NCBI GenBank assembly: GCA_016177405.1
Contig: JACOVG010000013.1
Span: 1,858 to 65,857, forward strand
Length of the DNA stretch: 64,000 nt
Direction: 5' to 3'
Origin: Candidatus Omnitrophota bacterium
GTDB lineage: Bacteria; Omnitrophota; Gorgyraeia; 1-14-0-20-64-10
In this document: in pieces, positions 2,605-51,832 of the stretch
How the letters are laid out: each line of letters opens with the position of its first letter
How positions within the stretch are numbered: the first letter of the stretch is position 1
Notes under the pieces: generated by a model
What the model was told of the DNA's origin: nothing
What the model saw: the letters and a program-made list of their open reading frames with translations, nothing else
Databases searched by the model: none
Position numbers and translations under genes: made by a program

Positions 2605-7987
<5,383 letters not shown>

Positions 7988-7999
7988 GAGGAGAGGGAG

Positions 8000-10441
<2,442 letters not shown>

Positions 10442-37994: not shown

Positions 37995-38195
37995 ATCGTG
38001 TGAGGGAAGCCCTGTGACCTGCCTGATGCCGGGCAGGAAGTCAGGCGCGGCCCCGCCACTGTAAGCCCGCCTCCGCCAAAGAAGTTGGCGGAGAACCTTA
38101 GCGCAGATCCAGCCACTGTCCACCAAACAAAATGGCGGATGGGAAGGCGCGCTGAAAGGTCGGGCAAGCCAGGAGACCTCGCGGTGTCCCACATA
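37995..38195 (+). promoter_or_regulatory. Cobalamin (B12) riboswitch
   Basis: 5' GGUGUGAGGGAAGCC; CCCGCCACUGUAAGCC; GCCACUGUCC...GGGAAGGCG; B12 box AAGCCAGGAGACCUCG at 38166-38183; SD GGGGGAGG and ATG 38239 follow. Confidence 0.8.
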
Positions 38196-38238: not shown

Positions 38239-38817
38239 ATGGCCTCGTACTCTCGTAAGAACGAGGCCTGTTTTGTCTCCGGAGGCCGGGGGCAGGGAGG
38301 CCTCATCCTGGTCACCGGGGGGGCGCGGTCCGGAAAAAGCGCCTTCGCCTTGGGGCTTGCCGACCGGGGCGCCTTTAAGAGGCGCCTCTTTGTCGCCACG
38401 GCGGTCGCTTGCGATGGCGAAATGCGCTCCCGCATCGCCCGCCACCGGAGACAGCGAAACGGCGCTTGGGGGCTGCTGGAGGAACCGCTTCGGCTGCCCG
38501 AGCGCCTGCCCCTGAAGGATCTTCCCGCGGGATCGGTTCTCTTGCTGGATTGCCTTCCCACCTTCGTGACCAACCTTCTTCTGGCCAAGGTTTCTCCCTC
38601 CCGGATTGAAAAGAGGCTTGAGGCCCTGGCGGATTGTTTGCGCGCTCCGGGGTTGACGGCGATTGTGGTGACCAATGAGGTGGGCCAGGGGGTGGTGCCG
38701 GGCTCCGCCTTGGGCAGGAGGTTCCGGGATCTTTTAGGAAACGCGAATCAGACCATTGCTTCCCGCGCCGACGGCGTCTACCTGATGGTGGCCGGGATAC
38801 CCATGAGGATCAAATGA
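38239..38817 (+). CDS. cobU: Adenosylcobinamide kinase / adenosylcobinamide-phosphate guanylyltransferase
   Basis: 192 aa, GGARSGKS P-loop. Confidence 0.85.
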   Translation: MASYSRKNEACFVSGGRGQGGLILVTGGARSGKSAFALGLADRGAFKRRLFVATAVACDGEMRSRIARHRRQRNGAWGLLEEPLRLPERLPLKDLPAGSVLLLDCLPTFVTNLLLAKVSPSRIEKRLEALADCLRAPGLTAIVVTNEVGQGVVPGSALGRRFRDLLGNANQTIASRADGVYLMVAGIPMRIK

Positions 38818-39875
38818 CCAACGAACTGCTTTCCCTTCTTGAGATTCCCGCCATCGATGAAAAGGCGCGCTCCGAGGCGAAGAGGCGGGTCGATTCGCTC
38901 ACCAAACCGCTGGGATCGCTGGGCCGGCTGGAGGATCTGGGCGTTGCCCTGGCCGGGATGACCGGGCGGGTCACCCCCACGCTCGAGCGCAAGGTGATTT
39001 TCACCGTGGCCGGGGACCATGGGGTTGTCCGGGAGGGGGTTTCGGCCTTTCCGCAGGAGGTGACGGCTCAGATGGTCCTGAATTTTCTGCGGGGGGGTGC
39101 TGCCATCAACGTCCTGGCTCGCGCGGCTTCCGCCGAGGTTCTGGTGGTGGATGCCGGTGTCGCGGCCGATCTTCCGAAAGCGGACGGGCTCATCCGCGTC
39201 AAGCTTAAGGCCGGCACCGAAAACATGGCCCAAGGCCCGGCCATGTCCCCGGGGGAGGCCCAGGGCATCGTGGAGGAGGGTTTTCGCCTCTTCAAAAGGA
39301 TTCACGCCGCCCGCGCCATAGACGTCGTCGGCTTGGGAGAGATGGGAATCGGCAACACCACCGCCAGCGCGGCCCTGGCGGCGGCCCTGCTGAACGTGGA
39401 GGCCTCTCTCGTTTCCGGGCGCGGCACAGGGCTCACGGACGGTCAGCTTTCCAAGAAGATTCAGGTGATCGACCAGGCCTTGAAGCTCAACCGGCCTGAT
39501 TCCAAGGACCCGATGGATTGTCTGGCCAAGGTGGGCGGTTTTGAGATCGGCTGTCTGGCCGGCATCACCTTAGCGGCCGCCTCGGCCCGGGTTCCGGTGG
39601 TGATGGACGGCTTTATCTCCACCGTGGCGGCCTTCCTGGCCTATCGGATCTCGCCGGCGGTCAAGCCATTTCTCATCGCCGCGCACCGTTCGGTGGAGCC
39701 CGGCCACAGCCTTTTGCTCAACGCCCTGGAGCTTCGGCCCCTCCTGGAGCTTCAGATGCGGCTGGGAGAAGGGACCGGAGCGGCCCTCGCTTTTCAAATC
39801 CTGGAGGCCTCGGTCCGGATCCTTTCGGAGATGGCCACCTTTTCCGAGGCCCAAGTGAGCGAGGGGACACCGTGA
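38814..39875 (+). CDS. cobT: Nicotinate-nucleotide--dimethylbenzimidazole phosphoribosyltransferase
   Basis: 353 aa CobT family. Confidence 0.9.
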   Translation: MTNELLSLLEIPAIDEKARSEAKRRVDSLTKPLGSLGRLEDLGVALAGMTGRVTPTLERKVIFTVAGDHGVVREGVSAFPQEVTAQMVLNFLRGGAAINVLARAASAEVLVVDAGVAADLPKADGLIRVKLKAGTENMAQGPAMSPGEAQGIVEEGFRLFKRIHAARAIDVVGLGEMGIGNTTASAALAAALLNVEASLVSGRGTGLTDGQLSKKIQVIDQALKLNRPDSKDPMDCLAKVGGFEIGCLAGITLAAASARVPVVMDGFISTVAAFLAYRISPAVKPFLIAAHRSVEPGHSLLLNALELRPLLELQMRLGEGTGAALAFQILEASVRILSEMATFSEAQVSEGTP

Positions 39876-40624
39876 AGTTTCTGCGCGCTCTTCAAGATGC
39901 CTTCTCCTTTCTGACCATCGTTCCGGTCGGTTCCAGGGTGGGAGGGTCCGATCCCTCCCTGCGGATGAGCAGGGCCCTTGCCTGGTTTCCCTTGGTGGGG
40001 GCTGCGGTGGGGGCCGCGGGGGCCGGGGTGGCCTGCGGAGCTTTTCGTTTCTTGCCCTGGCCGGTGGCTTCCGGTTTGGGCTTGGCGGCCGCGGTGCTCT
40101 TAACCGGCGCGCTGCACCTGGATGGTTTTGCCGACACCCTGGACGGTCTCGCGGGCGGGAAGGATCGGCAAGAGTGCCGCCGGATCATGGAGGACGCGCG
40201 CGTGGGGGTTTTTGGGGTGGTGGGTTTGATCCTTCTTCTGGGTTTGAGGTGGGAAGCCCTCCAGAGGACGGGACCGAGCCTTGTCCTCGGAACCTGGGTG
40301 ACCGCGGGGTTGTTCAGCCGCTTGGGGATGGTTTTGTCGGCCCAGTTCTTTCCTTATGGTCCGGGCCGGAAGGGTCTGGGCTCCTGGGTGACCGGCCGCA
40401 AGGTTCCCGGCGCGGTGGCCTGGGCGGTTCTTCTGGCGCTGGGGGGCAGTCTCTTCTTCTGGGTCGTCCCCAAGGTTCTGGTGTGGCTGGGTTTGACCCT
40501 CGGGGTGGCGGCGCTTTTCAACACCTGGGTGAAGAGCCGTCTGGGAGGGATCACCGGGGACACCCTGGGGGCCGTGAATGAGATTCTGGAAACGCTCCTG
40601 CTGATGGCCATGGTGGCGGGGTGA
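39872..40624 (+). CDS. cobS: Adenosylcobinamide-GDP ribazoletransferase (cobalamin synthase)
   Basis: 250 aa multi-TM CobS. Confidence 0.85.
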   Translation: MKFLRALQDAFSFLTIVPVGSRVGGSDPSLRMSRALAWFPLVGAAVGAAGAGVACGAFRFLPWPVASGLGLAAAVLLTGALHLDGFADTLDGLAGGKDRQECRRIMEDARVGVFGVVGLILLLGLRWEALQRTGPSLVLGTWVTAGLFSRLGMVLSAQFFPYGPGRKGLGSWVTGRKVPGAVAWAVLLALGGSLFFWVVPKVLVWLGLTLGVAALFNTWVKSRLGGITGDTLGAVNEILETLLLMAMVAG

Positions 40625-41706
40625 GCCCACACGGCGGGAACATCTGGGAGCTGTGCCGGCGCCGCGGCTTCGACCCCCCAGAGGTCCTTGATGTGAGCGC
40701 GGATCTGAACCCCTTGGGCCCGCCGCCGGGCTGGGAGGGGCGGCTCGCGGAAGGCCTCAAGAGTCTGCGTTGGTATCCGGATCCGGATTATCTGGATTTC
40801 CGCCGCGCCGCGGCTTGCCTTCATGGTCTTGAGCCGGAGTGCATCCTGCCCGGCAACGGAACCGCGGAGCTCATTCACCTTGCGGCCGGCGCTTCACGGT
40901 TCCGGCGGGCAGTGGTGGCCGTTCCAACCTTCACCGAATACGAAAGGGCTCTGGCGGGCAGGGGCAAGCCGATTTCTCTCTGGCCCCTTCAGGCGCCCGG
41001 CTTCAGGCCGCCATCCCTTCCCAGCGATTTCTCCGGCTGTGAGAGCGGCTTGATCTTCCTGTGCAACCCCAACAATCCCACCGGCACCCTCTGGCCCAGG
41101 GAGAGCCTGGTGGAGCTTCTGGCGGCGGCCGGCAAACATCAGGCGACGGTGGTGGTGGACGAGGCCTATCTTGATTTTGTTCCTGATCCCGGGCGTTACT
41201 CCATGGCCGGCCAGGTGAAGCATTTTAAGAATCTCATCGTCCTGCGCTCCCTGACCAAATCGTTCGCCCTGCCGGGTTTGAGGATCGGCTACCTGGCGGC
41301 CGAGCCCGGGATGGCCGCGGCGCTGGCCCAGGAACAGCCTCCTTGGTCTCTGAACGCCTTGGCCGCCGGGTTGGGGCCCTGGCTTCTGGAGCAGTCCGGT
41401 CACCTGGCCGAGAGCCGGCGGGAGCTCACGAAACTGCGCTTGGAATTGCTGGAGGACTTGAGGAGCGTGCCCGGCCTTCGAATCCATCCTTCCGAGGCAA
41501 ACTTCTTCTTGTGCGAGCTGACCGACCCGGAGCTCTCGACGCGGGAGATCCGTCAGGCGCTGGAGGGCCAAGGAATCTTGATTCGGACCTGCGACGACTT
41601 TACCGGTCTCACGCCCGGCCGTTTCTTCCGGGTGGCGGTGAAGCCGCGGCGTGAGAACGAACGGCTCATCACCGCGATGAAGGGGCTCTTCGCGCATGCA
41701 AACTGA
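40621..41706 (+). CDS. cobD: L-threonine-O-3-phosphate decarboxylase (CobD/CobC family, HisC-like)
   Basis: HGGNIWEL N-terminus, PLP fold. Confidence 0.8.
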   Translation: MSPHGGNIWELCRRRGFDPPEVLDVSADLNPLGPPPGWEGRLAEGLKSLRWYPDPDYLDFRRAAACLHGLEPECILPGNGTAELIHLAAGASRFRRAVVAVPTFTEYERALAGRGKPISLWPLQAPGFRPPSLPSDFSGCESGLIFLCNPNNPTGTLWPRESLVELLAAAGKHQATVVVDEAYLDFVPDPGRYSMAGQVKHFKNLIVLRSLTKSFALPGLRIGYLAAEPGMAAALAQEQPPWSLNALAAGLGPWLLEQSGHLAESRRELTKLRLELLEDLRSVPGLRIHPSEANFFLCELTDPELSTREIRQALEGQGILIRTCDDFTGLTPGRFFRVAVKPRRENERLITAMKGLFAHAN

Positions 41707-43198
41707 TTTCCTGATGTTCCAGGGGACCGGCTCCCACGTGGGGAAGTCGGTTCTCGCGACCGCCCTGTGCCGGATTCTCCGTCGAAGGGGGATCCGGGCG
41801 GCCCCCTTCAAGGCGATGAACATGTCCAACAACGCCTGGGTCACGCGCGCAGGCGGCGAGATGGCCTATGCCCAGGCGGCGCAGGCCTGGGCCGCCGGCG
41901 TGGAGCCGGCGGTGGAGATGAACCCTGTTCTCCTGAAGCCGGAGGCGGATCACACCTCCTCCCTCATCGTCCTGGGCAAGCCCGAGGGGCGCCTGCCCGC
42001 GATGGGAATCCGGGAGGTTCGCGAGCGCCTGATCCAGGTGATGGAAGAGAGCTTGAACCGGCTTGCTGGGGAGTTTGAGTTCATCGTGATCGAAGGGGCC
42101 GGGTCCCCCGCCGAGGTGAATCTTGCCCAGTGGGATCTGGCGAACATGGCGGTGGCCCGGAAGGTTCGGGCTCCGGTGATTCTGGTGGGGGACATCGAGC
42201 GGGGCGGGGTCTTTGCTCAAATTGTGGGAACGCTCGCCCTGTTGAATCCGGAGGATCTCGGGCTCGTGCGAGGCTTCGTGATCAACAAGTTCCGGGGGGA
42301 GCGGTCCCTGCTGGATCCGGGTTTAACCTGGCTTGAACAGCGGACCGGCCTTCCGGTTTTCGGCGTTGTTCCGTTTCTTCATGACCTTCGGATCCCGCAG
42401 GAGGACGCGGTGGCCTTGTCCGATCCGGCCGCGCCCCTGCCGAAGCCTTCCGCCAACGGCTCCTGGATCCGGATTCAGGTGGTTCGCTACCCCCAGATCG
42501 CGAACTTCACCGATTTTAAGCCGCTAGAAGAGGAGCCCGGGGTCCAGGTGGAGTACCTCACCCGGCCGCCACCGGACGCCCGGCGGCCCCGGCCCCATCT
42601 CTTGATCCTGCCGGGCACGAAGAGCACGGTCTCGGACCTTCAGTGGCTGAGGGAGCGGGGATTCGAGCCGTACTTGAAGAGCTCTCTCCAAGCCGGTGTC
42701 GAGGTGCTCGGGATCTGCGGCGGTTTCCAGATGCTGGGTGAGTGGATTCGCGATCCGGCCCACGTCGAGTCCGCTTACGCCAGCGTGGCGGGTCTGGGGC
42801 TCCTGCCCGCCTCCACGCGGTTTACGCCTGCCAAGGTGACGGTTCAGGTGGAGGGGGTCCACCCGGAAAGCGGGCTGACCATTCGGGGCTACGAGCTTCA
42901 TGCCGGTTGTCTTGAGGCGAACCATAAGGGAGAGCCGGTTTTCCGGATCACCCGCCGGGGCGGCCAAGCGGCCGACGGTTGGGACGGCTGCCGCCTGGCC
43001 GATCTACCGGTCTGGGGCACCTACCTGCATGGGCTCTTTGATGAGCCCGGCTTCAGGCGCTGGTTTCTGAATCGGCTGCTTCCCCGGGGGGGAGAGGGTG
43101 CGGGTGAGGGAGGGGACCCTTACGATTTCCTGGCCGATCAGGTGGAAAAGGCTCTTAACCTTTCGGAGATTCTTCCTCTATGGAAGCCATCGGTCTAA
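41696..43198 (+). CDS. cobQ: Cobyric acid synthase
   Basis: 500 aa, CobQ/CbiP GATase. Confidence 0.9.
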   Translation: MQTDFLMFQGTGSHVGKSVLATALCRILRRRGIRAAPFKAMNMSNNAWVTRAGGEMAYAQAAQAWAAGVEPAVEMNPVLLKPEADHTSSLIVLGKPEGRLPAMGIREVRERLIQVMEESLNRLAGEFEFIVIEGAGSPAEVNLAQWDLANMAVARKVRAPVILVGDIERGGVFAQIVGTLALLNPEDLGLVRGFVINKFRGERSLLDPGLTWLEQRTGLPVFGVVPFLHDLRIPQEDAVALSDPAAPLPKPSANGSWIRIQVVRYPQIANFTDFKPLEEEPGVQVEYLTRPPPDARRPRPHLLILPGTKSTVSDLQWLRERGFEPYLKSSLQAGVEVLGICGGFQMLGEWIRDPAHVESAYASVAGLGLLPASTRFTPAKVTVQVEGVHPESGLTIRGYELHAGCLEANHKGEPVFRITRRGGQAADGWDGCRLADLPVWGTYLHGLFDEPGFRRWFLNRLLPRGGEGAGEGGDPYDFLADQVEKALNLSEILPLWKPSV

Positions 43199-44124
43199 GG
43201 ATCGTCTTGGCCTACGGCTTGGATCTCCTGCTGGGAGATCCGGCCTGGCTGCCTCATCCGATCCGGGGCTTAGGCTGGGTGATCGAAAGCTCCGAGGCCG
43301 CCCTCCGGCGCCTGATCCGCAGTGAGCTTTTGGGCGGCATTCTTCTTGTTCTTCTGATCGGCGGGGGGACTTGGGGCCTGGTGGGGTTTGTGGTGGGTTG
43401 GGCGGCGCGGATTTCGCCGCTTTTTGCCCTGGGGATGGAGGCGGCCTTCCTCTATATCTGCTTGTCCACCAAGGATCTGGCGGTGGAAAGCTGGCCGGTC
43501 TTCCGCGCCCTGGAGCGAGGGGATCTGCCGTTGGCCAGGCGGAAGCTTTCCATGATCGTGGGAAGGGACACCGGGGAGCTTGACGAACCGGAGGTGACCC
43601 GCGGCACGGTGGAAACGATCGGCGAGAGCCTCATGGATGGCGTGGTCTCACCCCTGTTTTACGCCGCCATCGGCGGGGTGGGGCTGGCCTGCTGTTACAA
43701 GGCGGTCAACACCCTCGATTCCATGGTGGGATACCGGTCGAGCCGTTACCTCCGCTTTGGAAAGGCGTCGGCGGCCGTTGACCGGTGTATGAACGCCCTC
43801 CCCGCCTGGATCACGGCCGGCCTCATCGCGGCGGCCGCGGGATTGCTGGGCTTGCCGGGAGGCGGTTCTCTTCGGGCGTTTCTCAAGAATCCCAGGGCGC
43901 GCCAGGAGAACTCCTGGATCCCCGAGGCGGCGATGGCCGGAGCGCTGGGGGTCCGGTTGGGCGGGGTCAACCGGTATCAGGGTCTTGCCGTTGAAACCCC
44001 TTTTCTGGGTGAGCCGCTTAGGCCGTTAGGCCGGGCGGTCATTCCCCAGGCGATCCGGGTGATGTGGATGGCCTCGGGGCTGTCCCTTTTCGCGGCGCTG
44101 GGCTTGGCTGGGCTTATCCGATGA
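43180..44124 (+). CDS. cbiB: Adenosylcobinamide-phosphate synthase
   Basis: 314 aa membrane CbiB/CobD. Confidence 0.85.
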   Translation: MEAIGLRIVLAYGLDLLLGDPAWLPHPIRGLGWVIESSEAALRRLIRSELLGGILLVLLIGGGTWGLVGFVVGWAARISPLFALGMEAAFLYICLSTKDLAVESWPVFRALERGDLPLARRKLSMIVGRDTGELDEPEVTRGTVETIGESLMDGVVSPLFYAAIGGVGLACCYKAVNTLDSMVGYRSSRYLRFGKASAAVDRCMNALPAWITAGLIAAAAGLLGLPGGGSLRAFLKNPRARQENSWIPEAAMAGALGVRLGGVNRYQGLAVETPFLGEPLRPLGRAVIPQAIRVMWMASGLSLFAALGLAGLIR

Positions 44125-47100
44125 CCAGGGTCCCCAGGCTTCTCATCGCCGGAACGGCGAGCGGGGCGGGCAAGACCACCGTGACCTTGGGGCTGGCGGC
44201 GCTTTTAAGACAAAAGGGTCTGGTGGTCCAGCCGTTTAAGGCGGGCCCGGACTACATCGATTCCGCTTATCACACCCAGGCGGCCGGACGCCCCTGCCGG
44301 AATCTGGACGCCTGGCTCGTTCCCTCCGGCTCCTTGAACGCCATCCTGACCGGGGCGGCCCAGGGGGCCGACCTGTCTTTGGTGGAAGGGATGATGGGCC
44401 TGTTCGATGGGATCGGGCCCACCGGGGAGGAGGCCAGCACCGCGGAGCTGGCCAAGAAGCTCGCCTTGCCGGTTCTTTTGGTGGTGGACGCGGGCTCTTT
44501 CTCCCGCTCGGCCGCCGCCCTGGTGAGAGGCTTCAGGGATTTCGACCGGAAGGTCAAGATCGCCGGCTGTTTCCTGAACCGGGTTTCCTCGGAAGCCCAT
44601 GCCCTCCTGGTGAAGAGGGGGATTGAGACCCTGGCCGGGGTGCCGGTGGTCGGCTTTCTGCCCCAGGACGGCCGCCTTCGGCTGCCCGAGCGCCACCTGG
44701 GGCTGGTCCCTTCCGTCGAGCAAAAGGGCTGGCAGAGGATTCTGGCTCTCCTGGTCAAGCAGATGGAGCACAGCGTGGATGCCGAGGCTCTGCTGCGCTT
44801 GGCCCGGCGCGCGCCCCCCTTGGAGGCAGCAGCTATTTTAGGGTCATTGCGAGGAGCCGGCCAGAGGCTGGCGACGAAGCAATCTCAGGGATTGCTTCGC
44901 CCCTTCGGGGCTCGCAATGACATGAGGAGGGTGCCCATCGCGGTCGCCAGGGACGAGGCGTTTCACTTTTATTATCCGGAAAATTTGGAGCTTCTTGAAA
45001 AGTTCGGGGCGGAGATGGTTCCCTTCAGCCCCCTAAAGGATCGGAGCCTTCCGCGGGGGGCTGCCGGGCTCTATCTGGGAGGGGGATTCCCCGAGGTTTT
45101 CGCCGAGCCGCTTTCCAGGAACGCTTCCCTCCATCGGGAGATTCGGGAGAAGGCGGCCGCTGGGCTGCCCACCTATGCCGAGTGCGGGGGTTTGATGTAT
45201 CTTTCGCGAAGCATCCGTTCCACAAAGAGAAGGAGCTTTTCCATGGTGGGACTTGTCCCGGCCGAGATTCGGATGACCGACCGGCTTCAGCATTTCGGAT
45301 ACAAGAAACTTCGGGCTTGCCGGACCACGGTCCTGGCGAGGGCAGGGGAGAAGGCCAGGGGCCACGAGTTCCATCACTCGCAAGCCGTGGGGATTCCCGT
45401 GGAGGAGCGGGCCCCTTATGAGGCCCGGTCGGCCGGCGGCGAGGGCAGGCGCCTGGAGGGGTATGCCTACGGCAGTCTCCTGGCTTCCTATGTCCACCTT
45501 CATTTCATGAGCCAGCCGGCTTGGGCTAAGCGGTTGGTTGAGGCCGCGCGCCGCTGGTCAGGAGTTCTTCTTTTTCTCACCGCTTACAGCTTGCAGCTTA
45601 TCGCCGTCTCTTTCGCGGAGGAGCCGACCCGCCTGGAGGAGGTGGTCGTCACCGCCACCAAGGCCAAGACCCCGGCCAAGGAGGTGACCCGGGCGGTTTC
45701 GGTGATACCGGCCGAGCGCTTAAGCGTCGTCAAGGGAGGATTTGTCTCGCAGGGCTTGAGCGACGTGCCGGAGACCCTGGTCCGCCGGACCGGGTCCATC
45801 GGACGCACGACGGCTGTGGTGATTCGGGGGGCGTCGGCGACCCAGGTCCATGTGACCGTGGATGGCGCCCATGTGGCCAGCCCAACCACCGGCTCCTTCG
45901 ATTTCAACCATTTCACGCCGGATAATCTGGAACGGATCGAGATCCTCCGCGGGCCCGGCAGCACCCTCTACGGCGCGGACGCCATGGGAGGCGTGATCAA
46001 TCTCGTCACCCGGCGCGGCGAAGGGCCGTTCACCTTCTCCGCCACCTCGGAGTATGGCACCCTTTTGGACACCTTTCGGGAAGCCGCCTCCATGCAAGGG
46101 GCCTCGGGGCCGTGGCATCTGTCGGCCTCCTCCTCCCGGATGGACGCCAACGGCCTAAGCCAGAACGACGACTACCAAAATCTGAATCTTTCCACACGGA
46201 TTGGCTATGACCTGCCCAACCAGGCAACGGCGGATCTGACCCTGCGCCACATCTGGGCCGTGGTCGGGGTGGACGACGGCCCCTTTCGCCCGGACACGAA
46301 CCGGAGGGACCGGGAACGGCAGACCATCGGGACGGTCCGCCTGGAAGCCCCGGTGACGGCCTGGTGGAGCCAAACCTGGCGCTTCTCCACGGCCATCTCG
46401 AACTTCATCGACAACGATCCCTCCAACGGCGGCACCCAAACCGACAGCCTCTTCAAGCTGGATACCGAGCGCTATGGCGCCGAATGGATGAACCGCTTCA
46501 CTCCGGTTTCCTGGGACGCGCTGACCGTGGGTCTGGAGTTCGAAGACCGGGAGGCCGACAACCGGAGTTTTTCGAAAACCCAGGTCACGCGCGCCGCCTA
46601 CCTCCAGAATCAGTGGCGGCCCGTTGATCCCCTGACGGTGGTTGCCGGTTTCCGGTTCTTTCGGGAGAGCGCCTTCGGCAGCGATCAGGTCTTCGACCTG
46701 TCGGCGGCCTATTTCCACGAGCCCTGGGGTCTCAAGGCGCGCGGGGGCTATGGCCAGGGCTTCCGTCCTCCCACCCTGAACGAGCTTTTCTTTCCCGGCT
46801 TTGGTGTCCCCAACCTCTCTCCGGAAAAGAGCGAAACCTGGGAGATGGGCTTTGACCAGGTGCTCTGGGACAACCGGATCAATTGGTCCGGCACCCTCTT
46901 TCGGACGGAGTACGAGGATCTGATTCAGACCGTCCGGGTCTCGTCCACCGTTTCCGCGCCTCAAAATGTGGGCAAGTCGAGGATTCGCGGGGCGGAGCTG
47001 GAGCTTGAGCTCAAACCCTGGGACCCTTGGACCTTGACCGGCTCCTACACCCACCTGGAGGCCAACGAGGATCCCAGCGACGAGGAGCTCTTGAGGGTGC

Positions 47101-47384
47101 CCAAGAACACCGTGGGCTTCAGCGCGGGGTTTGCCCCCTCCAAGAGGTGGGACGCCCGCCTGGAGGGACTGCTGGTCTCAAGCCGGGAGGAGTCCACCGG
47201 CACCAACTCCCGCAACAAGACCAAGGGGTACCTCAAGCTCGATGCCCTGCTGCAGTACCGCTTCAAGCCGTGGTTGAGAGGCCATTTGAGGGTGGACAAC
47301 CTGACCGACCGCCAGTATGCCGAGGTGCTGGGTTTTCCGGCCGAGGGGCTCGCGGCCTCCGTGGGGCTGACGGTGGAGCGATGA
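44121..47384 (+). CDS. cbiA: Cobyrinic acid a,c-diamide synthase (CbiA/CobB, first ~460 aa) reading through without stop into a TonB-dependent receptor
   Basis: ATG 44121 overlaps the cbiB stop; CbiA homology ends near ...YVHLHFMSQPAWAKRLVEAARRW; same frame continues into the receptor. Confidence 0.7.
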   Translation: MTRVPRLLIAGTASGAGKTTVTLGLAALLRQKGLVVQPFKAGPDYIDSAYHTQAAGRPCRNLDAWLVPSGSLNAILTGAAQGADLSLVEGMMGLFDGIGPTGEEASTAELAKKLALPVLLVVDAGSFSRSAAALVRGFRDFDRKVKIAGCFLNRVSSEAHALLVKRGIETLAGVPVVGFLPQDGRLRLPERHLGLVPSVEQKGWQRILALLVKQMEHSVDAEALLRLARRAPPLEAAAILGSLRGAGQRLATKQSQGLLRPFGARNDMRRVPIAVARDEAFHFYYPENLELLEKFGAEMVPFSPLKDRSLPRGAAGLYLGGGFPEVFAEPLSRNASLHREIREKAAAGLPTYAECGGLMYLSRSIRSTKRRSFSMVGLVPAEIRMTDRLQHFGYKKLRACRTTVLARAGEKARGHEFHHSQAVGIPVEERAPYEARSAGGEGRRLEGYAYGSLLASYVHLHFMSQPAWAKRLVEAARRWSGVLLFLTAYSLQLIAVSFAEEPTRLEEVVVTATKAKTPAKEVTRAVSVIPAERLSVVKGGFVSQGLSDVPETLVRRTGSIGRTTAVVIRGASATQVHVTVDGAHVASPTTGSFDFNHFTPDNLERIEILRGPGSTLYGADAMGGVINLVTRRGEGPFTFSATSEYGTLLDTFREAASMQGASGPWHLSASSSRMDANGLSQNDDYQNLNLSTRIGYDLPNQATADLTLRHIWAVVGVDDGPFRPDTNRRDRERQTIGTVRLEAPVTAWWSQTWRFSTAISNFIDNDPSNGGTQTDSLFKLDTERYGAEWMNRFTPVSWDALTVGLEFEDREADNRSFSKTQVTRAAYLQNQWRPVDPLTVVAGFRFFRESAFGSDQVFDLSAAYFHEPWGLKARGGYGQGFRPPTLNELFFPGFGVPNLSPEKSETWEMGFDQVLWDNRINWSGTLFRTEYEDLIQTVRVSSTVSAPQNVGKSRIRGAELELELKPWDPWTLTGSYTHLEANEDPSDEELLRVPKNTVGFSAGFAPSKRWDARLEGLLVSSREESTGTNSRNKTKGYLKLDALLQYRFKPWLRGHLRVDNLTDRQYAEVLGFPAEGLAASVGLTVER
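45507..47384 (+). CDS. TonB-dependent outer-membrane receptor, BtuB-like (candidate independent start at internal ATG 45507)
   Basis: Signal-like MSQPAWAKRLVEAARRWSGVLLFLTAYSLQLIAVSFA, TonB box EEVVVTA, plug domain IRGASATQV...GGVINLVTRRG, beta-barrel. Confidence 0.6.
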   Translation: MSQPAWAKRLVEAARRWSGVLLFLTAYSLQLIAVSFAEEPTRLEEVVVTATKAKTPAKEVTRAVSVIPAERLSVVKGGFVSQGLSDVPETLVRRTGSIGRTTAVVIRGASATQVHVTVDGAHVASPTTGSFDFNHFTPDNLERIEILRGPGSTLYGADAMGGVINLVTRRGEGPFTFSATSEYGTLLDTFREAASMQGASGPWHLSASSSRMDANGLSQNDDYQNLNLSTRIGYDLPNQATADLTLRHIWAVVGVDDGPFRPDTNRRDRERQTIGTVRLEAPVTAWWSQTWRFSTAISNFIDNDPSNGGTQTDSLFKLDTERYGAEWMNRFTPVSWDALTVGLEFEDREADNRSFSKTQVTRAAYLQNQWRPVDPLTVVAGFRFFRESAFGSDQVFDLSAAYFHEPWGLKARGGYGQGFRPPTLNELFFPGFGVPNLSPEKSETWEMGFDQVLWDNRINWSGTLFRTEYEDLIQTVRVSSTVSAPQNVGKSRIRGAELELELKPWDPWTLTGSYTHLEANEDPSDEELLRVPKNTVGFSAGFAPSKRWDARLEGLLVSSREESTGTNSRNKTKGYLKLDALLQYRFKPWLRGHLRVDNLTDRQYAEVLGFPAEGLAASVGLTVER

Positions 47385-47773
47385 CCCTGGCTATGAGTTG
47401 GGGGCTTGTGCGGTGCGCCGGAGTCTTACTGATGCTGGGGCTGGCGGCGGGGTGCGCGACGGTGCCGAGAGAGTTTCCGGTGACGCTGGAGGTGGACTAT
47501 GGCCCAGCCGGAAAGCCGGCCATCCATGAGACGGTCATCGTCTCTCGTGGGGCGACGCCGGAGGCGGCCACCACCGCGGTTTTCCCGATTGAGAAAGGGT
47601 CGGTCTGCTGTGACCCCCGGGAGACCTCTGCCATCGACGGAGTGGCTGCCGATCCCGCGGCCAACCGCTGGTGGGTGGTCTCGGTGAACGGCTCGAAGAA
47701 GGTCTCCCCCTATAAAACCAAACTCAAGCTGGGTGACAAGATCCGTTGGGAATACCGCCAATATGAGCAGTAA
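47381..47773 (+). CDS. Small lipoprotein with transcobalamin-beta/DUF4430-like motif (putative corrinoid-binding)
   Basis: Lipobox LGLAAGC; C-terminus RWWVVSVNGSKKVSPYKTKLKLGDKIRWEYRQY. Confidence 0.55.
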   Translation: MTLAMSWGLVRCAGVLLMLGLAAGCATVPREFPVTLEVDYGPAGKPAIHETVIVSRGATPEAATTAVFPIEKGSVCCDPRETSAIDGVAADPAANRWWVVSVNGSKKVSPYKTKLKLGDKIRWEYRQYEQ

Positions 47774-48476
47774 GATGAGAGCCGGCTTTTTCACACTCCT
47801 CTTGTTGGCGTCCGCCTCTTCCGGGTACGCGCAGGAGGTTCGTGGAAGGGTGAGGGTCGATGGTTCACCGCCTGCCCAAGAGACGATCACGATTCAGGCC
47901 AAGAGCAAGGCGTATCCCATCGAGGGCTGCGGGCCGATTCAGAAGGCTTCGCCGAAGCTCGAGGTGAGCGCCGCTGGCGGGGTTAAAAACGCTGTGGTCT
48001 GGGCGGAGATTCCAGCTCAGGTCCAGCCAGAGCCCCTTCATCTCCTGATGGACCAGAAGGCGTGCGTTTTCAGCCCTCATGTCGTGGCCGCCGCGGCGGG
48101 TCAATCGTTGGCGATCCGGAACTCCGACCGAGTGATCCACAACGTCCGGATCTTCCGGGAGGGCAGGCCCGAGATGCTGATGCACCGGTGGCAGAAGGTG
48201 GATGGGGCCGACATCGTCTGGAGATTTGATGAACCGGGCCGGTACCTCGTCCGGTGCGGGGTCCACCCTTGGATGTACGGCTGGGTCTTCGTCGCCCCCG
48301 GGCGGTCCGTTGCCGTGACGGATGAAGAGGGACGCTTCGAGCTGACCGGTCTGCCGGAGGGCCGACATACCCTCCGCGTCTGGCATGAGACGCTGGGAAA
48401 CCGGGAGCTTGAGATGGAGGTAGGGAGCCAACCCCTGGATCTTGCCCCGGTGGTTTTTCCAAAGAAGGAGGCCTGA
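47763..48476 (+). CDS. Secreted cupredoxin-like (type-1 Cu site-like) plus CarboxypepD_reg-like domain protein
   Basis: Signal peptide; HNV...YLVRCGVHPWMYG; C-terminal VTDEEGRFELTGLPEGRHTLRVWHE. Confidence 0.55.
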   Translation: MSSKMRAGFFTLLLLASASSGYAQEVRGRVRVDGSPPAQETITIQAKSKAYPIEGCGPIQKASPKLEVSAAGGVKNAVVWAEIPAQVQPEPLHLLMDQKACVFSPHVVAAAAGQSLAIRNSDRVIHNVRIFREGRPEMLMHRWQKVDGADIVWRFDEPGRYLVRCGVHPWMYGWVFVAPGRSVAVTDEEGRFELTGLPEGRHTLRVWHETLGNRELEMEVGSQPLDLAPVVFPKKEA

Positions 48477-49096
48477 TGTTTTACGAGTGGTTTAAGCTGG
48501 GCGGCCCGGTGATGTGGGCGTTGCTCGCCTGTTCCATCGTGGCGCTCACGGTGATCAGCGAGCGGTTCTTCTTTTGGAGGGAGATCCGGCGCTCGCGGGA
48601 CGCCGGCGCCGTGGAGTCGATGCTGGCGCTCATCGAGCAGGGGCAAATCTCCCAGGCGCTGGCCAGGGGACGCGCCCTCTCCGATCCGGTGGCCCGGGTG
48701 CTGACCCGCGGCCTGGAGCATTGGCCCGCGGCCGTGACCGGCGCCCTGGAGGCCCAGGCCCAGGAGGAGCTGCGGCCGATGCGCCGGTACCTCGGCGTTC
48801 TGGAGACGACCATCACCCTGGCTCCGCTTTTGGGCATCTACGGAACGATCACCGGCATGATCCGGGCCTTCGGTTTCTTGAGCCGGGCCGGGATCACCGA
48901 CCCCCATCAGGTGGCCGCGGGGATCGCCGAGGCGCTGATCACCACGGCGGCTGGGCTGACCATTGCGATTGTCAGCATTCCGCCGTACAATTTCTTCACC
49001 GCCAAGACCGAGGAGGTGGCGCACGACATGGAGCGCCAGGCGACGGCGCTTGAGCTCTTGGCGGGGCGCAAACGATCGGCGGAGGGTTCCTCGTGA
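48476..49096 (+). CDS. exbB: MotA/TolQ/ExbB proton-channel protein
   Basis: 206 aa, 3 TM. Confidence 0.85.
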   Translation: MFYEWFKLGGPVMWALLACSIVALTVISERFFFWREIRRSRDAGAVESMLALIEQGQISQALARGRALSDPVARVLTRGLEHWPAAVTGALEAQAQEELRPMRRYLGVLETTITLAPLLGIYGTITGMIRAFGFLSRAGITDPHQVAAGIAEALITTAAGLTIAIVSIPPYNFFTAKTEEVAHDMERQATALELLAGRKRSAEGSS

Positions 49097-49509
49097 GGAT
49101 TTATTTTCCCCGTTCCTCGAAACCTAGGATCGAGATGATTCCCCTGATCGATGCCTTCTTCCTGCTGTTGGCCTTCTTCATGTCGTCGGTGATCACCATG
49201 GAGGTGGTTCAGGGGCTTCCGCTGGAACTGCCGCGGGCCGGGCCTTCCAAACCGCTGGCGTCAGGTGACCGGTGGATGGTGACCGTTACCCGGGAGGGCG
49301 CGGTTCAGCTTGAGGGGCGGGCGGTGACCTTGGAGGAATTGCGCTCGCGTTTGGCGGGCCATCCGGATCTGGAGTCGCTTCGGGTGGGCATTCGTGCCGA
49401 TCAGGCCACCCCTTACGAACGGGTGGTGCAGGTGTTGGCGGCGGCCCAGGCCAGCGGGGTCAAACGGGTTAACCTGCTGACCTCCGGCCGAAAGGAAAAG
49501 GAACGTTGA
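49093..49509 (+). CDS. exbD: Biopolymer transport protein ExbD/TolR
   Basis: 138 aa; IPLIDAFFLLLAFFM. Confidence 0.85.
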   Translation: MRIYFPRSSKPRIEMIPLIDAFFLLLAFFMSSVITMEVVQGLPLELPRAGPSKPLASGDRWMVTVTREGAVQLEGRAVTLEELRSRLAGHPDLESLRVGIRADQATPYERVVQVLAAAQASGVKRVNLLTSGRKEKER

Positions 49510-50039
49510 GCTTAAGGTTGGCGAAATCCGCCCTGCTGTCGGCTGGGGTGCATGCCCTGTTCATTCTCCCCGCCATCCACTTCGGCTTGGCCGGCGCTCC
49601 TCCCAAGGCGGACGTGGTTCGGGGCCGGGCAATCCTGGAGCTGGAGTGGGTGGACCCCCAGCCCTTGGACAAAGAGGAAGGGGAAGAGGAGCAGCGGGAG
49701 AAGTTGGGATTCAAGCCCCAGGAGGCGGTGGTGACCCCGGGGGCTTTTTCGGTGGCCGCGCCGGCGGGTTTTCGCAATCCGGCGCCGGCCTATCCCTGGG
49801 CGGCGAGGCTTCGAGGCTGGCAGGGAACGGTGGTGCTTCGGGTTTCGGTCGCCGCCTCCGGTCTGCCGGAGAGGGTGGAGATCGCCGTAAGCTCGGGCCA
49901 CGCGGTTTTGGATCAGGCGGCCCTGGAGGCTTTAAGGGCTTGGCGGTTTGTTCCGGCTCGGAAGGGCTCTCAAGCGGTGGCTGGGGTGGTGGAGATTCCG
50001 GTGACATTCAAATTGGATGAATCGAAGGAGGAGTTATGA
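49506..50039 (+). CDS. tonB: Energy transducer TonB
   Basis: TTG start; N-terminal TM, Glu/Pro linker, TonB-C GTVVLRVSVAASGLPERVEIAVSSGHAVLDQAALEALRAWRF. Confidence 0.75.
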   Translation: MSLRLAKSALLSAGVHALFILPAIHFGLAGAPPKADVVRGRAILELEWVDPQPLDKEEGEEEQREKLGFKPQEAVVTPGAFSVAAPAGFRNPAPAYPWAARLRGWQGTVVLRVSVAASGLPERVEIAVSSGHAVLDQAALEALRAWRFVPARKGSQAVAGVVEIPVTFKLDESKEEL

Positions 50040-50548
50040 AGCTGACTTGGGTTCTGGTGGCGGTGGGGGGTTTGATGGCGGCGGCGTTTCAACATGAACT
50101 GGGCGCGGCTCCCATCTTGGGTGCTCTCTTGTGCGCGGCCTGCTTCTTGAGGCCTCGGGATCTTTTCTGGGTGGGCTTGGGCGGGATGCTGGTTCGTGAG
50201 CTCGCGATCGGCATTTCCGTCTTCAGCGCGGTGCGCCTGGTCGCGGTGGCGCTGGTGGCGGCGGCGCTGGTGGCCCTGAAGGTTCGCCCCAGCTTTCGCT
50301 CCATCCTGACTGGACTGCTGGTTTCCTCGCCGATCTTTCATCTGTCCCTTTCGGTTGGAGACTGGCTGACCGGCTTCTGCGGCGTTTGGCCCAAGACGGC
50401 CGCGGGCTTGACCGGAGCGATTGTCACGGCGCTGCCTTACTTTCAGCGGTCGCTGGTCGGAGATTTCCTTTTCTCCAGCCTCTTCTTGGGGCTCTACACC
50501 GGTTTGGCTTATTGGACCACCGCGGTCCGGACCCGCGCCGCTTCGTGA
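50036..50548 (+). CDS. Polytopic inner-membrane protein, family unassigned
   Basis: 170 aa, ~5 TM, translationally coupled between the two TonB genes. Confidence 0.5.
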   Translation: MKLTWVLVAVGGLMAAAFQHELGAAPILGALLCAACFLRPRDLFWVGLGGMLVRELAIGISVFSAVRLVAVALVAAALVALKVRPSFRSILTGLLVSSPIFHLSLSVGDWLTGFCGVWPKTAAGLTGAIVTALPYFQRSLVGDFLFSSLFLGLYTGLAYWTTAVRTRAAS

Positions 50549-51240
50549 GACTGAAAGGGGCCCTGGGCTGGTCGTTGGCGCTCCACGCGGGAGTGCTGGC
50601 CCTGCCTTTGCCGCGCGGCTTCATCGCTTACGTCCCGACCGGCAAGCCCCTTTCCGTTACCTTTATGGGATCTCCGTCTGTCGCAGCAGCGGCGGCGGCC
50701 GCGAAGCAGGCGGCTGTGAAAGCCCAGGATTTGGTGGAGGTCAAGCGCCCCTCGGTAAGCCCTGCCGCGGCGGCCGTCGAAAAACCCCGGCGGGCTCCGC
50801 CTCCGGCCCCGGCCCGGCTTGAGAAACCGGCGCCCAAACCCGCCGCTCCGGCTCCGTCCCGGAAGGAGTTGGCCGGGCCGCTCAAGGGTCCGGCGCCGCC
50901 TGAACATCAAGCGGAGAGATCCCGGGATGACGGCGGGGCGTCAATCCAGATGCTGTCGGGCTCTTTCCTCTCCCTGGAGCATCGGCAAAAGGTGAGGGAA
51001 CACCTGAAGGGCCGCTTGACCTTTCCGGCGGTCTGGATTCGGGGTTTTGTCCATATGCGCTTGACCCTGGAGCCCGAAGGGCGGTTGGTGACTGCCCAGG
51101 TTCTGGAGAGCTCTGACCCCAAGCTTTCCGAGGCTGCCCTCCGGGAGGTCCAGCAGGCGGCCCCTTATCCCGCCTTCTCCCGCGACGTTTCCGAGGCCGC
51201 CCTCCAGTACGACTTCCTCATCCGCTACGAGCCCGACTAA
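50545..51240 (+). CDS. Second TonB-C/TolA-like domain protein with Ala/Pro-rich linker
   Basis: GTG 50545 overlaps the upstream stop; C-terminal GFVHMRLTLEPEGRLVTAQVLESS...AAPYPAF. Confidence 0.6.
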   Translation: MRLKGALGWSLALHAGVLALPLPRGFIAYVPTGKPLSVTFMGSPSVAAAAAAAKQAAVKAQDLVEVKRPSVSPAAAAVEKPRRAPPPAPARLEKPAPKPAAPAPSRKELAGPLKGPAPPEHQAERSRDDGGASIQMLSGSFLSLEHRQKVREHLKGRLTFPAVWIRGFVHMRLTLEPEGRLVTAQVLESSDPKLSEAALREVQQAAPYPAFSRDVSEAALQYDFLIRYEPD

Positions 51241-51293
51241 CCTCCCCCCGCCCTCTGTGTGGGGGTTTGCCGGCCACGGGTCCTCGCAGACCA

Positions 51294-51790
51294 CCCCGCC
51301 TTTGGTCTGGGGGAGAGGGCTCGCTCCGGAGATCTGGATGCCAGCTTCCGAGGCCCCCGCCCGGTGTGTGGGGGTTTGCCGGCCACGGGTCCTGCCGCCT
51401 GCGGGTACTCCCGCCGTCCGTCCTCGGCCCCTCGACTCCGTTCGTCCAGAGCTTGTCGAAGGACGAACGTCGCTCGGGACCTGCGGGCGTGGCGGCGGGT
51501 CCTCCCTCCGGCGTCACCCGTGTCCGCAGTCTCACCCCACACCCCGATCCGTCTCTTCGTAAGAGAGCACCCCGCCCTGGGGATGGGGGAAGGGCGAGCC
51601 TTAGGAGATCCTGGCGGTGGTCCGCAGGACCAGGGCGCGCAGGAGCGAAGCGCAGCGGAAACGGCGCCATTGGGTCTGGCCGCTCCCCCGCTGGATTTGG
51701 GCGAGGGTGGACGCCGAGGTTCTGCAAGCGGAGCGCCGAGCACCCAGCCAGATCTCCGGAGCGAGCCCTCTCCCCCAGACCAAGGGCGGG
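51294..51790. repeat. Non-coding GC-rich element bounded by 44-bp inverted repeats (51294-51337 / 51747-51790, 1 mismatch) with a 28-bp direct repeat (51257-51284, 51366-51393)
   Basis: Direct sequence comparison; internal perfect hairpin CGTTCGTCC-N13-GGACGAACG at ~51450-51480. Confidence 0.7.
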
Positions 51791-51832
51791 GGAACTCCGA
51801 TGAACTGGGGAGTCGGAATGTTTCGAGAAGGG

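Follow-up and report, generated by a model that had tools for sequence, protein, structure and literature searches.

What is the role of a small lipoprotein whose gene directly follows that of a BtuB-like TonB-dependent receptor in the genome of an uncultured bacterium? This question is raised by an open reading frame (ORF) in the 64-kb stretch of DNA from a Candidatus Omnitrophota bacterium analysed here (contig JACOVG010000013.1; hereafter the window), which a first-pass annotation, made from the letters of the sequence alone, had read as a possible corrinoid-capturing partner of the receptor. We found that the encoded protein belongs to the DUF4430 family, which corresponds to the C-terminal (beta) domain of transcobalamin (TC)-type proteins (PMC4350170), and that its gene is number eight of the 14 ORFs that stand behind a cobalamin riboswitch. 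For the proposal as a whole, with a confidence that is only somewhat better than even, we favour a tethered periplasmic corrinoid binder, which would act together with a co-encoded cupredoxin-like protein (P247) between the receptor and a candidate inner-membrane carrier of the DUF6580 family.

Family and predicted fold of the lipoprotein

The gene and the relevant segments of its protein, in nucleotide coordinates of the window, are as follows (aa, amino acids):

47381..47773, plus strand: DUF4430/SLBB lipoprotein of the transcobalamin beta-domain family, 130 aa, an ORF of 130 codons plus stop
47381-47455, plus strand: signal peptide and lipobox of the DUF4430 protein, the codon for Cys25 being 47453-47455
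47606-47611, plus strand: Cys-Cys pair (C76-C77) of the DUF4430 protein
47627-47758, plus strand: Pfam match in the DUF4430 protein, aa 83-126

The ORF translates as MTLAMSWGLVRCAGVLLMLGLAAGC-ATVPREF...RWWVVSVNGSKKVSPYKTKLKLGDKIRWEYRQYEQ, the same product as in the first-pass annotation, and its start codon (ATG 47381) shares the tetranucleotide ATGA with the stop codon (TGA) of the receptor ORF that ends at 47384, an overlap that had been recorded there as well. An alternative GTG start at 47408, which would give MRCAGVLLMLGLAAGC, fits the short N-termini of the homologues better; with either start, the signal peptide ends in the lipobox LAAG-C25 (...LLMLGLAAG-C25). The lipobox pattern is present in 82 of the 98 family members with complete N-termini, the residue at position +2 being Ala in 69 of them and Asp in none. 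These are the features of a lipoprotein, i.e. of a substrate of signal peptidase (SPase) II, whose cleavage and acylation are predictions from the sequence. Approximately 13 deep-branch homologues, including those of three related loci described below (L017, L019 and L022), carry an AxA-type SPase-I signal peptide that lacks the Cys.

A single-sequence search returned 96 homologues (E 1e-20 to 1e-70), many of which already bear the public label "DUF4430 domain-containing protein"; the few with a named source are from Candidatus Omnitrophica/Omnitrophota metagenome-assembled genomes. The vicinal cysteines to which the first-pass annotation had drawn attention along with the lipobox, C76 and C77, are found in 28 out of 28 aligned homologues, in which D39, G41, P42, G73, R80, E81, G87 and N95 are also invariant and W97, W98, N103-G104-S105, G118-D119 and W123 nearly so, and a CC..RE motif occurs in 116 of 122 family members. 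The gene is real and under selection.

In the Pfam search, residues 83-126 matched positions 27-71 of the 72-position PF14478 (DUF4430) profile with 30.7 bits (gathering score 23.8; E 4.4e-07), demonstrating that the resemblance to DUF4430 noticed at first reading is not a chance look-alike. The same profile is matched independently by 26 of the 28 aligned homologues, and fused relatives from the Cys-Cys (CC)-type branch to which the protein belongs match it as a whole (1-71 of 72), so that the part around the Cys-Cys pair is covered as well.

The AlphaFold2 model, computed from the family alignment with the signal peptide included, has a mean predicted local distance difference test (pLDDT) score of 78.8, with values mostly >90 in the core outside the loop region of residues 71-100. 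Its elements follow one another as beta (31-39), beta (48-55), alpha (60-67), a long insert, beta (98-102) and beta (120-125), in line with the order beta1-beta2-alpha1-insert-beta-beta described for the TC beta domain (PMC11107200). The top 10 Foldseek matches in the PDB comprise rat, human and bovine TC, haptocorrin (HC) and TC-beta (probability 1.0, template-modelling (TM) score 0.43-0.58, E 1e-3 to 6e-3), the beta domain of intrinsic factor (IF) also being named among the first matches, and the isolated human TC beta domain (5no0) reached a target-normalised TM score of 0.58 to the model. A crystal structure of a DUF4430 protein, 3u7z, came close behind, followed by generic beta-grasp domains (PI3K Ras-binding domain, SAMP1, LC3). 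The modest scores are partly explained by the signal peptide contained in the model, and the pattern of ranking fits the classification of DUF4430 as a transcobalamin-like clade of the SLBB beta-grasp superfamily (PMC1796856).

We consider the PF14478 membership and the fold class of the protein established. With TC, HC, TC-beta and 3u7z as the best fold matches in the PDB, the structure prediction proposed as a check in the first-pass annotation bears that annotation out, and of the two findings that it had named as speaking against itself, the lack of a DUF4430 match and an unrelated fold, neither was made. By sequence, searches of the PDB with phmmer and with the family profile returned nothing relevant for this protein.

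In the model, C76-C77 are placed in the insert after helix 1, which in the transcobalamin clade is a clade-specific element involved in B12 binding (PMC1796856). By analogy with BtuM, the pair could provide a thiolate ligand for cobalt, or the two cysteines could be joined in a vicinal disulfide and thereby shape the site. A manual alignment of the CC loop to the cobalamin (Cbl)-contacting hairpin of TC was dropped, as both hhalign and pairwise alignment were non-significant.

Operon, partners and related loci

The lipoprotein gene stands together with the following elements:

38003..38179, plus strand: cobalamin riboswitch aptamer heading the operon (Rfam RF00174, 58.6 bits, E 5.8e-12)
44064..47384, plus strand: CbiA-like amidotransferase and BtuB-like TonB-dependent receptor in one 1106-aa ORF (Pfam)
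47763..48476, plus strand: P247, a 237-aa secreted protein with an SPase-I signal peptide, a cupredoxin core and a CarboxypepD_reg-like beta-sandwich
50036..50548, plus strand: DUF6580 six-helix membrane protein (Pfam PF20221, 49.7 bits)

The riboswitch element, for which the RF00174 gathering score is 31.5, was the only match in an Rfam scan of the 64-kb window, and the same element is found 5' of cobU in the related locus L001. It is followed by 14 plus-strand ORFs whose junctions are all abutting or overlapping, mostly by 4 nucleotides (nt), in the order cobU-cobT-cobS-cobD, cbiP, cbiB, the CbiA-receptor ORF, the DUF4430 gene, the P247 gene, exbB, exbD, tonB, the DUF6580 gene and a second TonB gene. 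The top NCBIfam match of the receptor is TIGR01779 (TonB-B12), which at 221.8 bits lies below its equivalog cut-off of 599.7 and outscores the heme and siderophore models.

Scanning genomes at one per species yielded 19 related loci, labelled Omnitrophota, "uncultured Planctomycetia/Planctomycetales" or "uncultured bacterium", to which L001 and L022 were added; 20 distinct loci were counted, and L021, with a match of only 31 residues, was not analysed as a member. The gene order of the window is repeated in most related loci. Among the loci of the divergent relatives (the group of L016-L019 and L022; 46-53% identity), L017 consists of riboswitch, receptor, DUF6580, DUF4430, P247, TonB and Peripla_BP_2, with no cob genes between them, L019 consists of riboswitch, receptor, CbiP, DUF4430 and TonB, with no P247, and in L016 the DUF4430-P247 pair sits inside a cob operon, after cbiB and a nitroreductase-family gene and followed by TonB. 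The link to a riboswitch and a TonB-dependent receptor is seen in three gene arrangements within the lineage and is not obligatory. Since the window operon is headed by the riboswitch, the receptor is TonB-B12-like and the arrangements in L017, L019 and L016 are independent, we connect the DUF4430 protein with corrinoids; the riboswitch and the receptor-DUF4430 arrangements of L017 and L019 lend support, at the level of sequence, to the corrinoid-capture idea of the first-pass annotation.

The gene for P247 directly follows the DUF4430 gene in 18 of the 20 distinct loci, the exceptions being L019, which has no P247, and L020, whose contig ends within the DUF4430 gene; in the window, the start of P247 overlaps the DUF4430 stop by 11 nt. 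Pfam matches of P247 to Copper-bind, Cupredoxin_1 and CarboxypepD_reg are each below cut-off, and its cupredoxin matches are also below the NCBIfam cut-offs. In a phmmer search, P247 aligned to structures of pseudoazurin such that the positions of the copper ligands coincide (HNV; C..H..M). The full set of four type-1 copper ligands and the motifs SDxxxHxxR and RCGxHxWM show no variation among 18 orthologues, and the ligands are also kept in fusions of DUF4430 with P247. The C-x2-H-x2-M spacing we take to be that of amicyanin. From these sequence features, P247 is likely a pseudoazurin/amicyanin-like cupredoxin that binds copper. In P0235 and P0256, a DUF4430 domain is fused to a P247-like protein that is 30% identical to P247 across 201 aa (E 5e-28). 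On the grounds of the adjacency in 18 of 20 loci, the 11-nt overlap and the gene fusions, we favour the view that the DUF4430 protein and P247 would act as a unit.

Searching 1.84 billion cluster representatives with the family profile gave 170 CC-type relatives, 76 of them at E<=1e-10, indicating that CC-type DUF4430 proteins are a small, distinct branch; among the matches listed from a profile re-search of a 5.8-billion-sequence database, there were close family members only. The distant CC-type relatives (P-numbered) were taken from the representative library, and three of them (P0264, P0258 and P0270) are lipoproteins in which a CC-type DUF4430 domain is fused to Peripla_BP_2 (PF01497), the family that includes BtuF. 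NCBIfam does not single out BtuF for the fused domains, its heme, F420 and siderophore models scoring equally well or better. A stand-alone Peripla_BP_2 gene similar to the fused domains closes the L017 operon (9503..10414).

The gene for the DUF6580 protein is kept in the operon of most related loci and is present in L017, too. Foldseek matches of its AlphaFold2 model (pLDDT 91.6) to PDB entries with a probability of at least 0.5 are nearly all to S-components of energy-coupling factor (ECF) transporters (RibU, FolT, ThiT, BioY) or to BtuM, the BtuM-cyanocobalamin structure 8c7p having the highest TM score (0.65/0.62), with weak E-values. Single-sequence and profile searches of the PDB revealed no similarity of DUF6580 to BtuM or any other solved structure. 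In Gram-negative bacteria without BtuFCD, BtuM acts on its own as an S-component-like carrier of B12 and ligates cobalt through a cysteine (PMC6072759). Judging from its model, DUF6580 is a candidate inner-membrane corrinoid carrier and may represent an uncharacterised family of solitary B12 carriers. Two of its cysteines, C33 and C115, are invariant, and two histidines, H20 and H102, nearly so.

Location and ligand

In the mechanism that we propose, cobalamin, cobinamide (Cbi) or less complete precursors would enter through the co-transcribed BtuB-like receptor and be held in the periplasm by the DUF4430 lipoprotein, a single-domain corrinoid binder that would be tethered to the membrane and face the periplasm, together with P247; the two would pass the corrinoid to DUF6580, the inner-membrane protein with an S-component/BtuM-like predicted fold, and CobU, CobT, CobS, CobD, CbiP, CbiB and CbiA would afterwards complete or remodel it. 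Once B12 is plentiful, the riboswitch would shut the whole operon. Both the corrinoid as ligand and the periplasmic orientation are what we infer from sequence comparison, and the order of the hand-off, from receptor to DUF4430/P247 to DUF6580, is presumptive. That a lone beta domain should bind a corrinoid is biochemically plausible, because the isolated human TC beta domain does so: it crystallises with cobalamin and with cobinamide, and extensive washing is needed to remove Cbl (PMC5599065). Moreover, in the mammalian carriers it is the beta domain that makes the first contact with the ligand (PMC11107200).

The periplasm is favoured by the soluble deep-branch orthologues, by the soluble secreted P247 and by the Peripla_BP_2 fusions; given an SPase-I signal, no Cys and a diderm cell, the deep-branch members would be soluble periplasmic proteins. 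Where the first-pass annotation had left the choice between surface and periplasm, these observations point to the periplasm and make the surface the less likely place. A capture lipoprotein exposed on the outer leaflet of the outer membrane, capping or feeding the receptor in the manner of BtuG, would suit a gene that directly follows and overlaps the receptor gene (ATGA) and a lipobox with Ala at +2, which by the E. coli rule sorts to the outer membrane; Bacteroides BtuB has established surface lipoprotein partners (PMC6143338, PMC10404256). Such a surface cap is nevertheless unlikely in our assessment, as it sits poorly with deep-branch orthologues that are not lipid-anchored and would be soluble periplasmic proteins, with a partner, P247, that combines an ordinary signal peptide with a copper site typical of periplasmic cupredoxins, with relatives fused to a periplasmic-binding-protein domain, with DUF4430-P247 pairs that exist without a receptor nearby, and with a fold that is unrelated to the BtuG beta-propeller. 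By analogy, the role of the protein is most likely nearer to that of BtuF than to that of surface BtuG. The comparison with BtuG made in the first-pass annotation, as a functional analogue without relationship, therefore stands as to fold, the protein being a beta-grasp, and is weakened as to function, for which BtuF is the better model.

Several observations weigh against our proposal of a tethered periplasmic corrinoid binder. The likeness to transcobalamin holds at the level of profile and fold only, with Foldseek E-values of ~1e-3 and TM scores of 0.46-0.58; hhalign against human TC-beta gave a probability of 4.7% and no reliable residue-level alignment to the Cbl contacts, pairwise local alignment with TC-beta scored no higher than shuffles, and the CC-bearing loop (residues 74-83), with a pLDDT <50, is a low-confidence part of the model. 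In L022 and L018, the DUF4430-P247 pair stands by itself, without a riboswitch, receptor or cob genes in its vicinity, and a riboswitch search at permissive thresholds upstream of these stand-alone pairs found none. A type-1 copper protein in B12 uptake is, to our knowledge, without precedent. Lipoprotein sorting by the +2 residue is an E. coli rule and may not be that of Omnitrophota. The literature searched holds no binding data for a bacterial DUF4430 protein of any kind; the PDB entry 3u7z carries the label "putative metal binding protein" from its deposition, and a DUF4430 protein from Lactobacillus has been proposed to take heme (bioRxiv 10.1101/864751).

The annotation of 3u7z and the heme role proposed for the Lactobacillus homologue would both agree with a protein that binds no corrinoid, whose Cys-Cys loop would bind copper for the cupredoxin partner, or cobalt, or whose domain would bind another tetrapyrrole, e.g. 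heme, the B12 operon context then reflecting co-regulated metal supply. Cobalt transporters are commonly under riboswitch control, the CC pair is invariant, a copper-site partner is adjacent or fused, and the DUF4430-P247 pair is also found outside B12 loci, without a riboswitch, all of which is compatible with a metal or heme ligand. We hold this to be quite improbable for the window protein: chelatase and early corrin-ring genes, which could make use of free cobalt, are absent from the operon, the receptor is closest to BtuB models, DUF4430 is kept in three different riboswitch-linked arrangements, L019 keeps DUF4430 without P247, and cobalamin and cobinamide are the only ligands shown experimentally for this domain family (PMC5599065).

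Finally, the DUF4430 protein and P247 could process the corrinoid in the periplasm in an enzyme-like manner instead of shuttling it passively, with a Cys thiolate ligating cobalt and the type-1 copper of P247 passing an electron (Co(III)/Co(II)), such that an upper ligand, e.g. cyanide, is removed or the corrinoid is switched to a form that DUF6580 accepts. The four type-1 copper ligands, present in every one of 18 orthologues and also in the fusions, would be consistent with such chemistry, as would the invariant Cys-Cys pair in the clade-specific insert after helix 1, the B12-contacting region in transcobalamin; BtuM offers a precedent for Cys-Co ligation and decyanation in bacterial B12 uptake (PMC6072759), and the gene fusion argues for a tight functional unit. 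Set against this, the scheme is inferential throughout and has no known electron donor, P247 stays below the Pfam and NCBIfam cut-offs in its cupredoxin matches and L019 has no P247, so we give it a similarly small chance. If true, it would add to B12 uptake a step that depends on copper and a redox step in the periplasm, each the first of its kind to be described, and it would define a route by TonB receptor, SLBB protein and solitary S-component that bypasses BtuFCD.

Known systems and the remaining operon

The tethered periplasmic binder that we prefer shares with the beta domains of TC, IF and HC the PF14478 family, the secondary-structure order, the top fold matches and an extracytoplasmic location. 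Unlike these proteins, it has no alpha/alpha-toroid partner in its operon, where a cupredoxin protein is the partner, its pairwise sequence similarity to them is undetectable, and it is predicted to be lipid-anchored; human, bovine and rat TC beta domains are devoid of a Cys-Cys pair, whereas the window protein has an invariant one in its insert loop.

According to Burroughs et al. (2007, PMC1796856), the transcobalamin-like SLBB proteins of bacteria are secreted and are probably B12 scavengers, and their genes occur together with those of ECF-type transporters. Gram-positive SLBB proteins found with ECF/CbiO-CbiQ, including Lsa1839 of Lactobacillus sakei, are secreted single- or multi-domain DUF4430 proteins for which capture of B12 or a related tetrapyrrole has been proposed, and the window operon, with its S-component/BtuM-like DUF6580 protein, is similar in that pairing. 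It differs in belonging to a diderm, where the DUF4430 protein would work behind a TonB-dependent receptor for which the operon provides ExbB, ExbD and TonB, in having no ECF ATPase or T component, and in encoding a CC-type lipoprotein with a cupredoxin instead of a toroid. By analogy, we regard the window operon as the diderm counterpart of the Gram-positive SLBB-ECF arrangement.

Accessory lipoproteins in B12 loci next to BtuB are also known from Bacteroides, in the form of BtuG, BtuH and BtuJ, and the likeness of role would be that of extra corrinoid binders. BtuG is a seven-bladed beta-propeller; the window protein, a beta-grasp, shares with it only the adjacency to a BtuB-like gene. BtuJ is a jelly-roll (DUF4465) and BtuH binds B12 with a C-terminal globular domain of its own, both unrelated to the beta-grasp of the window protein. 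BtuG, BtuH and BtuJ are surface-exposed, whereas the evidence for the window protein favours the periplasm. A reading of BtuH as a DUF4430 protein is unsupported, the BtuH paper making no mention of DUF families, Pfam or transcobalamin.

With BtuF, the likeness lies in the proposed holding of the corrinoid in the periplasm between receptor and inner-membrane transporter, and fusions of CC-type DUF4430 to Peripla_BP_2 exist; the fold is different, there is no BtuCD-type ATP-binding cassette transporter in the window operon, and the Pfam search found no PF01497 match in the 130-aa protein. With BtuM, in which a Cys ligates cobalt during B12 uptake (PMC6072759), the likeness concerns the cysteines of the DUF4430 protein, whose role is speculative, and the DUF6580 protein, whose best TM score is to BtuM; BtuM itself resides in the membrane and is unrelated to DUF4430 in fold.

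Many B12-dependent bacteria have BtuB without BtuFCD, and how corrinoids pass the periplasm and the inner membrane is only partly known (PMC6072759). For this passage, the window operon is a compact, self-contained, riboswitch-marked candidate route made up of a receptor, an SLBB lipoprotein, a cupredoxin partner and an S-component-like carrier, in Omnitrophota, an uncultured phylum whose members are believed to rely on other organisms. The DUF4430 family, its relation to transcobalamin and predicted bacterial B12 scavenging are already published, and the literature that we searched contains no experimental work on any bacterial DUF4430 protein and nothing on the Omnitrophota module. What is new in the arrangement is the association of a lipoprotein or periplasmic single-domain DUF4430 protein with a TonB-dependent receptor, its invariant Cys-Cys pair, the near-constant and sometimes fused type-1-copper partner and the S-component-like DUF6580 protein, together under one riboswitch. 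If the copper partner and the Cys-Cys pair act on the cobalt centre, this would be new chemistry in B12 trafficking; if they do not, the protein would add a further member to a class of B12 binders that has already been predicted.

The other genes of the operon are listed here, those of the cob group with the Pfam family matched by the L001 orthologue:

38239-38817, plus strand: cobU (CobU)
38814-39875, plus strand: cobT (DBI_PRT)
39872-40624, plus strand: cobS (CobS)
40621-41706, plus strand: cobD-type aminotransferase (Aminotran_1_2)
41696-43198, plus strand: cbiP/cobQ (CbiA and GATase_3)
43180-44124, plus strand: cbiB (CobD_Cbib)
48476-49096, plus strand: exbB (Pfam MotA_ExbB, 106 bits)
49093-49509, plus strand: exbD (Pfam ExbD, 87 bits)
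49506-50039, plus strand: tonB (Pfam TonB_C, 78 bits)
50545..51240, plus strand: second TonB-like protein (TIGR01352 tonB_Cterm, 26.3 bits, just below the cut-off of 27.1)

The cob genes (38239..44124), which cover late steps of cobamide synthesis and salvage, are collinear between L001 and the window by tblastn. The 12 kb upstream of the operon contain housekeeping genes and no corrin-ring biosynthesis genes. Judged by its gene content, the operon looks like a unit for corrinoid import and completion or remodelling. The exbB-exbD-tonB genes are the energy-transducing module for the receptor. The second TonB-like gene, which is kept downstream in related loci, probably starts at GTG 50545, this start and the stop of DUF6580 sharing GTGA; the longest ORF runs from 50386. 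Two TonB paralogues are encoded by the operon.

Within the 1106-aa ORF, Pfam places CbiA/GATase_3 at aa 25-484, Plug at 538-644 and the TonB_dep_Rec barrel at 697-1080. The CbiA part probably starts at ATG 44121, with an ATGA overlap with cbiB, and its C-terminus continues without a stop into the signal-peptide-like segment of the receptor, which ends in ...AVSFA-EEP; a candidate internal ATG for the receptor lies at 45507. A cytoplasmic-type enzyme and an outer-membrane receptor are contained in one ORF, with a fusion protein or internal initiation as the alternatives. The single ORF is also found in L001 and L009, L003 is masked at the junction, and separate genes are present in nine other loci; we rejected the fusion as a conserved feature, the single ORF occurring in 3-4 of 13 loci.

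Three of the related loci have further neighbours. The nitroreductase-family gene of L016 (7065..7778, plus strand), between cbiB and the DUF4430 gene, may encode a BluB-type dimethylbenzimidazole synthase. A BNR/sortilin-type beta-propeller protein (3297..4916, plus strand) is encoded directly after the stand-alone DUF4430-P247 pair of L018. On the Omnitrophota contig of L022, a group I intron match at 3459..3659 on the plus strand (RF00028, 52 bits; gathering score 50) is found 5' of a PDDEXK_5 gene.

A scan of the operon for promoters and terminators gave counts at or below the shuffled expectation. The gap between the operon and rpsU (51245..51792) is ~300 nt longer than that of L001 and contains a 47-nt inverted repeat with arms at 51294-51340 and 51745-51791, which are 96% complementary and 404 nt apart, as well as a 40-nt direct repeat (51245-51284 and 51354-51393, 95%). 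From their sequence, these repeats may be a small inserted repeat element.

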